Below, one piece after another: positions 6,285-10,689 of a stretch of DNA of 59,013 bases. A model generated the notes under the pieces. The model was not told the DNA's origin and searched no databases. It saw only the letters and a program-made list of their open reading frames with translations. The stretch lies in the UHGV virus genome UHGV-0049545, one strand, 5' to 3'. The stretch comes from a virus. A program made the translations under genes and the position numbers. Positions within the stretch are counted from its first letter, which is position 1; every line of letters starts with the position of its first letter.

Positions 6285-6604
6285 GCAGAGTTACCAACGT
6301 CGTAGTTATGTGCGATACCCTTACCGAGCATTACGGGGTATTCCTGCGGTCCGTTGACCGCTGGTTCCGGGAACATACCGGCACCAGTCTTCGTTCCGTA
6401 GGCCACATGGCCGGCGGCGATAAAAACATGGAATGCAGCGTCTCCATTGGTGCTTTCAACCACCTGGACGTGGATGGGTTTTTCAAAGCGCTCCCGGGTT
6501 TTGTCGAAACTAAACGGATGGACGCGGACAGCGGCTTCATCCTCGTAACCGCTACCACCCAGGAGAACGAAATCATCACATGGAGGCATCAAGTTGAGTT
6601 CTGA
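6281..6604 (+). CDS. hypothetical protein
   Basis: ATGA overlap. Confidence 0.45.
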   Translation: MSRVTNVVVMCDTLTEHYGVFLRSVDRWFREHTGTSLRSVGHMAGGDKNMECSVSIGAFNHLDVDGFFKALPGFVETKRMDADSGFILVTATTQENEIITWRHQVEF

Positions 6605-7307
6605 ATACGTTGACAACCTCATCGCGCTGAAAGCCCGGGAAGCGCATGACCTGAAAGAGATAGGCGACCAGTGGCGGACACCGGACTGGCTGTTCTTCGC
6701 GCTGGACAAGCTGTTCGGCCCGCTGGTGCTCGACCTGTTCACCGATGGCCAGAACGCCAAATGCCCGCGCTACTACACCGCCGAGGACAACGCGCTGCGC
6801 CAGGACTGGGCGGGCCGGCTGAAAAGGATACAGGCGGAACTGGAGGCCGAGGCGGAAGTGTACGACGTCGCCGATCACGTCCAGCGGGTATGGGGTTTCG
6901 CTAACCCACCGTACAGCCGTAACCGTGCGGCGGAAGTGCCGCTGACCGGCATGGTCAATATCATGGCCAAGGCGGAAGAGGAACGGAAGAAAGGCGCGGG
7001 TACGGTCTGGGTGATCAAAGCGGCAACCGCTGAAACATGGTGGCCCGATACCATCGCCACGCGCACCATATTCATCAAAGGGCGCATCGGTTTCGAACCG
7101 CCGGTATGGTTCAAAGCGAAGAAGGGCGCCGCTGGCGCAACGTCCGCGGGCTTCGGCGCCGCGATAGTCATCTTCGACCCGGAAGACGAAGAAAAACATG
7201 CCCCGGAGTACATCTCCCGGGAAGCGCTCATGGATATCGGGCTTCCATGGACCACGATGATGCAGGACGTCCGCGAGAAGTGGATCGCCCAGTGGGACGA
7301 GGTGTGA
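6594..7307 (+). CDS. phage-type DNA N6-adenine methyltransferase (Dam-like), TTG start behind GGAGG
   Basis: WRTPDWLFFALDKLFGPLVLDLFTD...CPRYYTAEDNAL and NPPYS match the phage N6A-methyltransferase family signature. Confidence 0.75.
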   Translation: MSSEYVDNLIALKAREAHDLKEIGDQWRTPDWLFFALDKLFGPLVLDLFTDGQNAKCPRYYTAEDNALRQDWAGRLKRIQAELEAEAEVYDVADHVQRVWGFANPPYSRNRAAEVPLTGMVNIMAKAEEERKKGAGTVWVIKAATAETWWPDTIATRTIFIKGRIGFEPPVWFKAKKGAAGATSAGFGAAIVIFDPEDEEKHAPEYISREALMDIGLPWTTMMQDVREKWIAQWDEV

Positions 7308-7572: not shown

Positions 7573-7942
7573 CGATGGCGTAATTGGCGAGCAGGTAAGC
7601 CTGGCGGACGGGTATGACCCGGACGCCTGGTACTACCATCCCGTCTTCTTCCACGCCAGTAATAACTACGATGGGTCCAATCTCGACGCGCTGCTGGACG
7701 TATACAACCTGGAGCTGAACGGCTTCTACATGGGGGAAGGCTATCCGCGAGCGCTGGAAGTACCGCTGCGAGTGGCGTACGACAACGCGAATACGGACGA
7801 GATGCGCGCCTCTGTGCTGCGTACCTGGATGCCGCGCCCGACGTCGCTTAACGGGTCCGGCTGGTTCCTCCTGTATACGGCGCCGACGGAATTCGATGGT
7901 CCGTATGCCTGTTTCGCGAGGGTCAAAGATGGCCAGAAATAA
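7550..7942 (+). CDS. hypothetical protein
   Basis: ATG 7550 behind AAGGAAAG. Confidence 0.45.
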   Translation: MPKPNVYNDGVIGEQVSLADGYDPDAWYYHPVFFHASNNYDGSNLDALLDVYNLELNGFYMGEGYPRALEVPLRVAYDNANTDEMRASVLRTWMPRPTSLNGSGWFLLYTAPTEFDGPYACFARVKDGQK

Positions 7943-8102
7943 ATACGTGGCTATGTGTTGCTACTGCAAAAAGCCAGTGCCGGCCGGCGCCGGGTATCTT
8001 GAAAGGTCTGCGTCCGGAACGTGGACTACGATCCATGCCGATTGTGCGGTCAAAAGACGCGAAGAGAAGAAGGCGCAGAATGGCATACATAAACGGCTCT
8101 AA
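7929..8102 (+). CDS. small Cys-rich protein (CCYCKK...C)
   Basis: Short ORF, tentative. Confidence 0.3.
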   Translation: MARNKYVAMCCYCKKPVPAGAGYLERSASGTWTTIHADCAVKRREEKKAQNGIHKRL

Positions 8103-9264
8103 ACCGTTCCACTATTACAACGAGTGGGACGCTAAAACCGCAGCATGGTTGCGTGAATTAATAAAACGTGGCCATCTTCAAGAAGGAATCGTCGATGAAC
8201 GATCAATCACCGAAGTCGCCCCGGAAGACCTCAAAGGCTTCGCCCAACACCATTTCTTCGCCGGGATCGGAGGCTGGCCGCTGGCCCTTAAACTCGCCGG
8301 ATGGCCGGCGTATGCGCCAGTGTGTACGGGAAGTCCGCCGTGCCAGCCTTTTAGTGTGGCTGGAAAACGAGGCGGGCGGGACGACTCCCGTCACCTGGCT
8401 CCGGCCTTTCTCGACCTCATCGCAGAGCTGCGACCTCCAGCTATTTTTGGCGAACAGGTTAGCGCAGCAATTAAAGAACTGTGGCTCGATGCTCTATTCG
8501 TTGAGCTGGAAGACGAAGGCTACACCTGCGCATCGGCAGTATTGCCAGCGTGCAGCGTCGGCGCCCCGCACAAAAGAGATCGCCTTTTCTTTGGCGCTAT
8601 CGACCTGGCCGACCTCGTCAGCGACGGACTGGAAAGGCGGCTACGCGGGTGGGCGGATAAGGAATGGCAAACTATCCGTCGACCGGCTGGACGTGGCGGC
8701 GCAGCTGGCAACATATCCAACGCCGAACACCTGCAACGATCGCAGCCCATGTCCGGACTACGCGCGGGCGGGATGGTTCCGGGAGGACGGGACGAAGAAG
8801 CACATCCGCCTGCAGGACATTGCGGGGATGGCGGGCTGGCCAACGGTGACGACGATAGACAACAACCAGGTTCGCGGGGAGGCGGGCGCAGCGGGCCATC
8901 CGGATCGGTCGACGACCCTGGGCGGCGCGGTTCGTCTTGCCAGCTACCCGACACCGCTGACGGTACCGGACTCACCGGCATCGAGGGGGCAGCTATCGGG
9001 GAGCTACCGGAAGGGCATGGAGAAGTGTACGCCTGTTCCGGACTTCCCGATCAGGATCACGGCGCATGGTCAAATGCTGACTGGCTGCTATGCCGGGATG
9101 GGAAGTTCAGGCCCGTTGAATCCGGCACATTCCCGCTGGCTAATGGGGTACCCGCCCGAGTGGTGCGACTGCGCGGATACGGAAACGCAATCGTCCCTCA
9201 AGTCGGTGCCCAGTTCATCCGAAACTTTATGGTGGGAACTGTAGATTTTCTGGAAAACGTTTGA
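8080..9264 (+). CDS. DNA (cytosine-5) methyltransferase; motifs I (FFAGIGG), IV ([12 protein letters not shown]), VIII (HKRDRLFF) and X (GNAIVPQV) are in this frame, but the target-recognition domain and motif IX ([10 protein letters not shown]) are in the +1 frame (8591-9166)
   Basis: Motifs read directly in two frames. The annotated ORF reads through but is low-complexity G/R/D/P-rich over 8600-9160. Confidence 0.6.
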
Positions 9265-9289
9265 CACACAAAACGTGTGCAGCTAGTAT
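9261..9289 (+). promoter_or_regulatory. Early promoter P3: TTGACA (9261-9266), N17, TAGTAT (9284-9289); spacer CACAC-aaaac-GTGTG palindrome
   Basis: Read directly; overlaps the 3' end of the methyltransferase gene; next ATG at 9325. Confidence 0.7.
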
Positions 9290-9324
9290 TCTAATCGAAC
9301 AACAAAACAACCTGGAGATATACC

Positions 9325-10689
9325 ATGTCAGAGAATAAAGAAATGCCGGCCAAAAACAGAATCGTTCACCCGAGAACCGAACTCCGCTGGCCGCCCTTCC
9401 ATAGCAATTTATTGAATGAAGCGTTCCTGACCTCGGTTAAAGGCGTCTTCGATGAGATGCTTGGTCGTCTTTACTACGGCGCGGATAAGCGCAAAGGCTG
9501 GGCGGCAGCTGAACCATGGCGAGAATTGACCGAGCATGAATGCCGCACCTGCATTCGCGATTCAATAGCAAAAGGCAAGCTGATCGACGCGATGAACTAC
9601 ATCATGTTCGCGCATCTCAACGGACATAAACTCCTTTCGCTGCGTAACCCGTCCATTGACGAACAGGTCAGCATTGATTCGCAAATGCGTGACCAGCTGG
9701 CGAACGCGCTGGGCGTCACAGGCCGCAGCTGGGACGAAATGCTGGCCATGGCAGGCGCGGTGAATGCGCAGGCATTCGAACATGAAAAAACGATTGAGGC
9801 GATCGCGAAAGAACTAAAACTCGACCTGGATGCCCCGGCAGATACGATTATCTCCACCGTCCATTTCCTAGTTAAGCGCTGCCAGTCCGCCGTAACGGAA
9901 GTCAGCATTACCGGATGTACTGACCCGGATGTACTGGAGAACGTTGCAAAGATGATTAAGGCGAATACTCAACCGGCGGGCTTCGCGTGGGATGGTCGTA
10001 AAGTCGGTACGTCGCCCGCTATGGCCGCGCCGTACGGCGTTACGGCGTCTAAAAAACGGCAGCAATACGAATTGTCGATGGAAGCCGATGACTCCGGTAT
10101 CCCTTCGCCGCTGTTTATCTTCCGCAGCAAGAAAGATCGGGATGACTATCTGCCGCTGCTGCGCACCTTCCTCGGCGCGCTGGAACAGGCGGCGTACGGT
10201 AAAGGCCGTGAGCGTCACGCTAACGACCTGCCGTTTGTAGAACAGCCGATCCTGACCATGGCGCATATGCTGGACAGCGACGCCGGCCTGGCGCAGCAGG
10301 TTATCAAGAAAACCGTTGAAGCGCGGTCGCTGCCGACTAAACAGGCCCGGATCAATGAACTTCGCGGGACGCTGGTGTACGCCGCAGCGATGATCCTGTT
10401 CGAAGAGATGTATGGCAAGCCGGACGCGAAACCCAGTTCGACATCCCGTTCAGTGGTTCGGGTGAAAATTTCGGACCTCCAGCCCGGCATGGTTATCCGC
10501 TTCGACCGTGATTACATTGCGGTGGTAGAAGGGCTAATAGGCACTCAAATCGGTGACGACGGCAAGATTAACTTCTGGTGGTCCGTGCGACGTGAACGAC
10601 GCGGCGTACCCAGTAAAGGCGTTGTATTCGGGCATGACACAACGTTTAACGTGGACAATGACCCTGACGAGTTAGACGGAGCATTGTAA
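9325..10689 (+). CDS. hypothetical 454-aa protein
   Basis: Long ORF behind GGAGATATACC SD. Confidence 0.55.
   Translation: MSENKEMPAKNRIVHPRTELRWPPFHSNLLNEAFLTSVKGVFDEMLGRLYYGADKRKGWAAAEPWRELTEHECRTCIRDSIAKGKLIDAMNYIMFAHLNGHKLLSLRNPSIDEQVSIDSQMRDQLANALGVTGRSWDEMLAMAGAVNAQAFEHEKTIEAIAKELKLDLDAPADTIISTVHFLVKRCQSAVTEVSITGCTDPDVLENVAKMIKANTQPAGFAWDGRKVGTSPAMAAPYGVTASKKRQQYELSMEADDSGIPSPLFIFRSKKDRDDYLPLLRTFLGALEQAAYGKGRERHANDLPFVEQPILTMAHMLDSDAGLAQQVIKKTVEARSLPTKQARINELRGTLVYAAAMILFEEMYGKPDAKPSSTSRSVVRVKISDLQPGMVIRFDRDYIAVVEGLIGTQIGDDGKINFWWSVRRERRGVPSKGVVFGHDTTFNVDNDPDELDGAL

Follow-up and report, generated by a model that had tools for sequence, protein, structure and literature searches.

C5-cytosine DNA methyltransferases consist of a large domain, formed by conserved motifs I–VIII together with motif X, and a small domain, which holds the target-recognition domain (TRD) and motif IX. 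The small domain of single-chain enzymes is inserted after motif VIII and before motif X, and the helix of motif X folds back against the catalytic domain. The enzymes of the Bacillus phages SPR, phi3T and rho11s are single-chain and multispecific, with TRDs that were mapped experimentally. A two-chain enzyme, M.EcoHK31I, was reportedly studied by Lee, Kam and Shaw in 1995. The layout of the large and small domains is described in PMC3404938. According to PMC2836561 and PMC3404938, M.EcoHK31I is a YGGCCR C5-methyltransferase from Escherichia coli HK31, in which alpha carries motifs I–VIII, motif X and a predicted TRD, beta carries motif IX, and both polypeptides are required. M.AquI is another C5-methyltransferase that is naturally split in two polypeptides, within the variable region (PMC3404938). 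Here we analyze a methyltransferase locus in the UHGV virus genome UHGV-0049545, a Klebsiella siphophage of the genus Yonseivirus; the whole stretch of 59,013 nucleotides is referred to below as the window. The sequence makes it probable that this locus is one C5-cytosine DNA methyltransferase written as two nested genes on the same strand, alpha and beta (Table 1).

Alpha is read in frame 1 (frame A), which is open at 7999–9264, with an ATG at 8080 and the stop codon at 9262–9264. Beta is read in the +1 frame (frame B), open at 8168–9244; its ATG at 8195 lies 115 nt inside alpha, and its length is 89% of that of alpha. An earlier note on this DNA had placed C5-methyltransferase motifs I, IV, VI, VIII and X in frame 1, and all five were present where it had put them. 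Motifs IV (PCQ, with the catalytic Cys), VI (ENV) and VIII (QxRxR) are colinear in alpha, as in C5-methyltransferases. The Pfam family PF00145 matches alpha residues 83–174 (E=2.3e-18), which correspond to motifs IV–VIII only, and hhalign of alpha against M.HhaI residues 2–171 gave E=8e-15. Motifs IV–VIII were also aligned with M.HhaI by phmmer, and phmmer and hhalign both cover M.HhaI residues 72–171. In the AlphaFold2 (AF2) model, the alpha/beta N-domain had a predicted local distance difference test score (pLDDT) of 60–83, the spacer at residues 195–369 had 25–40 and the C-terminal helix (residues 373–393) had 71–79. A Foldseek search with this model retrieved M.HhaI, M.HaeIII (E about 1e-6), DNMT1 and others over ~170 columns. 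Alpha belongs to phrog_363 over its full length and has more than 7,192 homologues.

Between motifs VIII and X, frame 1 is unselected (see below) and predicted disordered, and no TRD or motif IX was found there. This part agrees with the low-complexity string described in the earlier note: it is G/D/A/R-rich, with 33 G, 15 D, 15 A and 14 R among the 156 residues 174–329. Past the spacer, residues W330, D334, W335, R339, D340 and R344 are invariant (alignment A3). Motifs II–III were not found between motifs I and IV of alpha, where hhalign left a 36-residue gap opposite M.HhaI 33–68. A weak motif-II-like string, YYNEWD, occurs upstream of motif I (8113–8130) and is identical to M.HhaI YSNEWD at 5 of 6 positions. 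Judged from these positions, the alpha N-domain seems to be permuted (8113–8130 and 8275–8328).

Table 1. Features of the nested methyltransferase locus and codon-phase zones in the window. Mismatches are counted at frame-A codon positions 1/2/3.
Feature	Coordinates	Strand	Evidence or remarks
Alpha ORF (open reading frame), frame A, 394 aa; predicted C5-cytosine methyltransferase catalytic large-domain subunit	8080..9264	+	ORF list
Alpha motif I FFAGIGG, AdoMet (S-adenosylmethionine)-binding loop	8254..8274	+	Aligns to M.HhaI LFAGLGG; invariant in alignments A1 and A3
Alpha motif IV, catalytic Cys	8329..8364	+	Aligns to M.HhaI GFPCQAFSISG; P-C-Q-P-F-S invariant
Alpha motif VI FGEQV, ENV-type	8446..8460	+	Aligns to M.HhaI FMENV
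Alpha motif VIII HKRDRLFF, QxRxR-type	8569..8592	+	Aligns to M.HhaI QKRERIYM; frame-A selection
Alpha spacer, G/D/A/R-rich, predicted disordered, stop-free	8593..9066	+	pLDDT 25–40; substitution pattern; stop counts
Alpha conserved segment, dual-coding zone with beta	9067..9111	+	Frame-A substitutions; invariant residues
Alpha motif X, start of C-terminal helix	9166..9219	+	Frame-A selection (79/137/449); likeness to M.HhaI FGNSVV by eye
Shine-Dalgarno-like AAGGA, 7 nt before beta ATG	8183..8187	+	Sequence
Beta ORF, frame B (+1), 349 aa, wholly inside alpha ORF; predicted recognition/small-domain subunit	8195..9244	+	ORF list, homologues
Beta leader over alpha motifs I–VI; unconserved protein, open frame	8195..8446	+	Substitution and stop counts; pLDDT about 40–55
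Beta conserved helix and beta-hairpin over alpha motifs VI–VIII, dual-coding zone	8447..8572	+	pLDDT 79–89
Beta module 1, type B	8606..8713	+	Module clustering; frame-B selection
Beta module 2, type H	8714..8836	+	Clustering; missing in KPN N137
Beta module 3, type E	8837..8944	+	Clustering; missing with module 2 in phage Soft
Beta module 4, type C, always terminal, with conserved segment	8945..9112	+	Clustering
Beta motif-IX-like string	9116..9163	+	Frame-B selection (227/64/104); invariant residues
Beta C-terminal tail ending WWEL, over alpha motif X; not protein-selected	9164..9244	+	Frame-A substitution pattern
Codon-phase zone, frame A	8125..8440		1395/1124/3062; beta position 2 (= alpha position 3) most variable
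Codon-phase zone, flattened	8441..8529		436/376/591
Codon-phase zone, frame A	8530..8619		207/135/438
Codon-phase zone, frame B	8620..9024		190/49/46; A position 1 = B position 3; P=1e-31
Codon-phase zone, flat	9025..9066		36/29/25
Codon-phase zone, frame A	9067..9114		105/70/181
Codon-phase zone, frame B	9115..9163		227/64/104
Codon-phase zone, frame A	9164..9219		79/137/449

The frame under selection was mapped by frame-agnostic blastn of 8080–9264 to all loci of the survey described below. Protein-guided codon alignments of the centre were also tried and were uninformative, as the number of modules varies, and the blastn counts were used instead. Based on the codon-phase pattern of mismatches, protein-level information runs from frame A to frame B and back to frame A. 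In addition, two short zones (8441–8529 and 9025–9114) appear to be constrained in both frames. The claim that the methyltransferase coding information is split across two frames is thus borne out, and the switches (~8620 and 9164) fall close to the points that had been proposed. Selection on the +1 frame covers 8620–9024 and 9115–9163. The beta leader and the alpha spacer are unselected as protein, yet open.

Whether this openness exceeds chance was assessed by shuffling synonymous codons of the selected frame and counting stops in the other frames. In the window, frame B had 0 stops in the N-domain versus 2.8 expected (P=0.011), and frame A had 0 stops in the centre versus 3.4–3.9 expected (P about 0.007–0.015). 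The same test on 72 loci gave 6 stops versus 103 expected for frame B in the N-domain (68 zero-stop loci versus 15 expected) and 14 versus 230 for frame A in the centre (70 zero-stop loci versus 7.4 expected). The control frame behaved as expected by chance, with 332 stops versus 327 in the N-domain test and 369 versus 363 in the centre test. Both frames are therefore actively held stop-free where they are not selected for amino acids. An alternation of selection from A to B to A, with each frame open where it is unselected, fits two polypeptides better than one recoded chain.

One alternative is a single polypeptide made by two programmed frameshifts, +1 near 8584–8594 and -1 near 9164–9172, which would join motifs I–VIII to the WPTP region and motif IX, and these to motif X, as a canonical single-chain enzyme. 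The A-B-A selection pattern is exactly what such a spliced product would need. The T-run CTTTTCTTTGG noted earlier at 8584–8594 is present, and from general knowledge CUU-U within CGC CUU UUC resembles the prfB slip site. However, this model leaves unexplained the lack of stops in the +1 frame over ~400 nt upstream of the putative shift site and the openness of frame 1 over ~470 nt beyond it. Nor is the site itself maintained: the RLFF encoded at the T-run is replaced by RLWFVG, RAYWVA or RLYFVA in relatives, no X XXY YYZ heptamer occurs at 9140–9180, and an Rfam scan of 7900–9400 found no element. The hallmark of prfB-type and dnaX-type recoding, a conserved slip site shortly after which the zero frame closes, was not seen; both frames are open for ~1 kb. 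Furthermore, 8441–8529 and 9025–9114 are conserved in both frames together, the +1 frame has a conserved Shine-Dalgarno (SD) sequence and ATG of its own, and splicing would leave ~8 residues between motif IX and the GN of motif X, versus 16 in M.HhaI. We consider programmed frameshifting very unlikely. Two polypeptides are favoured because both frames are kept open, the slip sites are unconserved and frame B has its own SD and ATG.

According to the earlier note, the enzyme could function only with a +1 change at the T-run that is compensated by a -1 change near 9164–9172, and programmed recoding was listed among the possible causes. Neither view is supported, since a recoded single chain would not need both frames stop-free where unselected; both frames are open in nearly all surveyed loci, stops are avoided, and the T-run, heptamer, Rfam and SD results point the same way. 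Its statement that the single long ORF is misleading is half right, in that this ORF would hold only half of the enzyme; the ORF itself probably gives a real product, alpha. In a separate search, a spliced hybrid (alpha 1–171, beta 8594–9163 and alpha 9166 to the end) and two C-terminal pieces gained no additional PF00145 coverage, with matches at profile positions 66–161 of 324 only, and the description of motifs IX and X as canonical was not confirmed by this Pfam search.

The frame-B start was further examined among relatives. An SD followed by an ATG within -120 to +45 nt of motif I was found in frame B at 58 of 81 loci, in frame C at 23 and in frame A at 1. When a 5-mer SD was required, frame B retained 29 of these 81 loci, frame C 3 and frame A none. 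The frame-B starts cluster at -41, -59 and -71 relative to motif I.

The nested layout is widespread. The window is ~95% identical to Klebsiella phages PIN2, KPN N137 and SAKp02 and ~92% identical to Soft; the two frames likewise lack stops throughout in PIN2, KPN N137 and Soft. Length differences among these relatives are multiples of three and correspond to whole +1-frame modules that were dropped: KPN N137 lacks module 2 (architecture BEC), and Soft lacks modules 2 and 3 (BC). A compact form is present in the E. coli Kagunaviruses K1ind1 and fKuEco01, with an alpha of 274 aa, a beta of 230 aa and a single module. The same two fully open frames occur in a P2-like prophage (L004) with ~40–50% protein identity. 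For a broader survey, we used 80 IMG/VR loci chosen by the frame-1 N-domain alone (alignment A1) at 55–95% identity, out of at least 594 relatives. Among the 76 loci not cut by a contig end, 74 had alpha open through GNA[IV] together with a +1 frame open for 0.7–1.2 kb, from ~50–120 nt past the match start to ~10–70 nt from the frame-A stop. About nine in ten of these +1 ORFs carry the motif-IX pattern W[LVM]MG.P. Frame C contains ORFs of ~100–200 nt only and is full of stops.

These data also bear on the proposal that the two-frame layout is an artefact or a sign of decay in the window genome, namely two compensating sequencing indels, a pseudogene or a phase-variable gene, all of which the earlier note had offered as causes. 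A T-run does lie at the first switch point, and Pfam recognises only motifs IV–VIII in frame 1. However, the same layout is found in independently sequenced Klebsiella phages at 92–96% identity, in the E. coli Kagunaviruses, in the P2-like prophage and in 74 of the 76 diverse IMG/VR loci. Relatives differ by indels that come in multiples of three and take out whole modules, and stops are strongly avoided in both frames. This explanation, which we regard as extremely improbable, is already refuted by the comparative sequence data.

Conservation is also visible at the DNA level. A stretch of 120–175 nt within 9046–9220, where beta motif IX overlaps the alpha C-terminal segment with motif X, is 75–84% identical across phages of Pseudomonas, Rhodobacter, Xanthomonas, Burkholderia, Ralstonia and Edwardsiella and E. 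coli N15. For hosts so far apart this identity is unusually high, and it would be expected where a second frame constrains synonymous sites.

The +1-frame protein is itself a large family. It has 989 word-index homologues, and its profile matched 21,641 representatives of 50%-identity clusters (7,507 at E<=1e-30), most of which start at profile positions 5–15. Database proteins of 349 aa show 95–98% identity to beta, and gene callers produce the same 349-aa protein in close relatives. Residues 6–334 match phrog_1008 ("DNA methyltransferase"). PHROGs thus keeps one family per frame, phrog_363 and phrog_1008, which was counted as support for two nested genes. Conserved residues occur in three parts of beta. 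In the helix-hairpin, L89, G97 and Y101 are invariant and W105, T110 and P111 are at least 90% conserved. In the module 4 zone, G292, G297 and G306 are invariant and R287, L295, T296, A300 and M302 are at least 90% conserved. In the motif-IX zone, L308, P310, R314, W315, G318 and W323 are invariant.

The variable region of beta is a tandem array of modules of ~30–45 aa, each headed by W/Y-P-T-P. The three WPTP repeats that had been reported over 8591–9166 are present; a fourth module had been overlooked, and the frame is open well beyond that interval. A lack of homologues for these repeats would have counted against the earlier claim, and the support found is massive, as shown by the profile matches above. 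Module types were defined by clustering at strict thresholds, as single linkage merged all modules. Among 196 beta proteins, WPTP-headed modules of at least 20 types recur, arranged in 123 architectures. The architecture of the window is B-H-E-C, relatives have BEC, BC, BHC, BXEC and others, and types A, C and D occur only at the end of the array. At the DNA level, the sequences under the WPTP modules shared only chance-level matches of 10–15 nt, and the repeats thus exist only as protein motifs.

Alpha alone could also be the active methyltransferase, with beta as an accessory, regulatory or unrelated overprinted protein. Alpha has motifs I, IV, VI, VIII and X, annotation pipelines name it "DNA cytosine methyltransferase" by itself, and beta has no detectable link to a methyltransferase family or fold beyond a weak motif IX match. 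However, alpha contains no candidate TRD, because the region from motif VIII to the C-terminal segment is free of amino-acid constraint and is predicted disordered. In contrast, the part of beta under purifying selection is precisely the one where a TRD and motif IX would be expected, and M.EcoHK31I provides a precedent in which a nested beta supplies a required motif IX. On balance this alternative appears unlikely.

Several observations weigh against assigning the locus to a two-chain enzyme. The AF2 model of beta is of low confidence (mean pLDDT 53.8), and its best part, the helix and hairpin at residues 81–125, has a pLDDT of 79–89. Beta matched no Pfam and no NCBIfam family, its profile had no PDB sequence match even at E<=10, and its AF2 model gave no meaningful Foldseek match. 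The sole hhalign match between the beta profile and M.HhaI is motif IX, RKLHPRECARVMGYPDSYK 272–290. This match lies at the expected place but is weak, and the motif IX assignment thus comes from an alignment of 19 columns with E=0.19. The model also does not account for the start of beta ~84 codons ahead of its first conserved residue. On the alpha side, motif X was aligned by neither Pfam nor hhalign. In the survey, the two exceptions, L058 and L083, have one stop each in the alpha N-domain, and L005 (metagenome Ga0634391_85750) has an open +1 frame and a stop in the alpha spacer at ~3230, just before WRDADWLFCRDGKW. These stops could be errors, decay, or variants that make alpha differently. 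Finally, the surveyed loci are phylogenetically related, and their counts are not fully independent.

In the two-chain enzyme that we favour, frame A would provide the large domain and frame B the small domain, because the former comprises motifs I–VIII as well as X, and the latter the TRD and motif IX. Alpha would fold into the domain that binds AdoMet and carries out catalysis (motifs I, IV, VI and VIII), continue through a disordered spacer of ~155 residues whose sequence would be irrelevant, and close with the conserved segment and the motif X helix. Translation of beta would begin at its own SD and ATG, 115 nt inside alpha, read through the unconserved leader of ~84 residues across alpha motifs I–VI, and then produce the conserved helix-hairpin, the four variable WPTP-headed modules as a putative target-recognition region, and motif IX. 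By analogy with M.EcoHK31I, where this has been shown experimentally, we infer that alpha and beta come together as an active enzyme, which, together with the upstream Dam-type adenine methylase described below, may protect phage DNA from host restriction. Under a bolder proposal, two nested ~1 kb genes would be obligatory for a very large family of orphan C5-methyltransferases in phages and prophages, comprising at least 21,000 50%-identity clusters, and beta would be a cassette array of interchangeable TRDs for multispecific anti-restriction methylation. This is tentative, and we think it rather doubtful. If true, the overlap would rank among the longest conserved ones known for same-strand genes in viruses of prokaryotes, and the out-of-frame spacer of alpha, its sequence being irrelevant, would tolerate any cassette content.

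The nested layout has consequences for annotation. PGAP and the records of KPN N137 and Soft call alpha, PIN2 calls beta, and the GenBank records of K1ind1 and fKuEco01 carry both nested coding sequences, as "C-specific methylase" and "Mte8-like protein". Our literature search found no paper on the nested layout in this phage methyltransferase family, and the label "Mte8" of the nested ORF of K1ind1 led to no description. Because pipelines call one of the two ORFs, thousands of database entries would represent half an enzyme, and the "hypothetical protein" family with ASLSARQAK and WPTP consists mostly of methylase genes read in their +1 frame. Statistically, the locus makes a very strong case for a long and ancient overlap on one strand, in which frames alternate between being selected and being merely kept open. 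It would extend M.EcoHK31I, a single studied curiosity, to a widespread phage lineage, and it suggests a modular recognition subunit that could possibly be re-engineered; split methyltransferases have already been used for targeted methylation (PMC2836561). Judged from their sequences, Klebsiella and E. coli phages with this locus probably modify cytosines, which would bear on host range, on sequencing and restriction behaviour, and on phage therapy genomics.

Two neighbouring genes were also examined. A 237-aa ORF at 6594–7307 (+) matches Pfam Dam (PF05869, E=2.5e-33) and is labelled "phosphoadenosine phosphosulfate reductase" or "DNA adenine methylase" in relatives. Based on this match, the phage carries adenine and cytosine methylases within about 1.5 kb, with Dam ~1.3 kb upstream. 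A 68-aa ORF at 7896–8102 (+), whose 3' end overlaps the alpha start by 23 nt, has CxxC...HxxC spacing (MCCYCKKP...IHADCAV) and no Pfam match; it is possibly a small zinc-binding protein.

Some relatives had unusual structures. In Klebsiella phage Seifer (MH817999, 44104–45705), the methylase region matches in three pieces, with an "endonuclease VII" gene annotated beneath, and a mobile nuclease has possibly inserted at the methylase locus. In Komagataeibacter phage phiKX2 (~1700–1900 of L008), the alpha end has no recognisable GNAIVPQ motif X, beta is intact, and only part of beta is annotated, as a hypothetical protein. In four database proteins (P0071, P0072, P0240 and P0253), the beta ORF runs on into the next gene downstream and appears fused to Dam (PF05869) or to DUF2800/PD-(D/E)XK. 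Two others (P0039 and P0060) are alpha-to-beta chimeras in which the frame switches at different places. These read-throughs and chimeras may be real fusions or artefacts of assembly or gene calling. In a search for single-chain relatives, with a beta-like region in frame with PF00145, only P0039 and P0060 carried PF00145 among the 120 hits listed, and both are frame-1/+1 chimeras without motif X.

Comparison with known systems places this locus closest to M.EcoHK31I. M.EcoHK31I is made of two polypeptides, as proposed for this locus; in both systems beta is nested wholly in the alpha gene in another frame, and its core is preceded by an N-terminal stretch. M.EcoHK31I has its TRD assigned to alpha and a small beta, whereas here the variable region, with its four WPTP modules, is selected in the beta frame only. 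The present enzyme is a phage orphan methylase, whereas M.EcoHK31I belongs to a type II restriction-modification pair; unlike M.EcoHK31I, the present alpha has no motifs II–III between motifs I and IV. In M.AquI, alpha carries motifs I–VIII and beta motifs IX–X; here motif X remains part of alpha, and the nesting of the two genes extends across ~1 kb. The phage-borne enzymes of SPR, phi3T and rho11s resemble this locus in their tandem exchangeable modules of ~30–45 aa, with variants that differ by whole modules, although theirs lie within one chain and ours in a separate nested subunit whose role in specificity is hypothetical. By this analogy, the likeness of the WPTP modules to the tandem TRDs of multispecific methylases is a lead. 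Lambda Rz/Rz1 also has a second gene wholly embedded in the +1 frame, with products that cooperate, as proposed here. Rz1, however, is a short and new protein, whereas the overlap here is ~1,050 nt and the two frames together would rebuild one ancient enzyme fold. Considering these similarities and differences, the present locus is best explained as a nested alpha/beta C5-methyltransferase, a new and very widespread variation on the plan of M.EcoHK31I.

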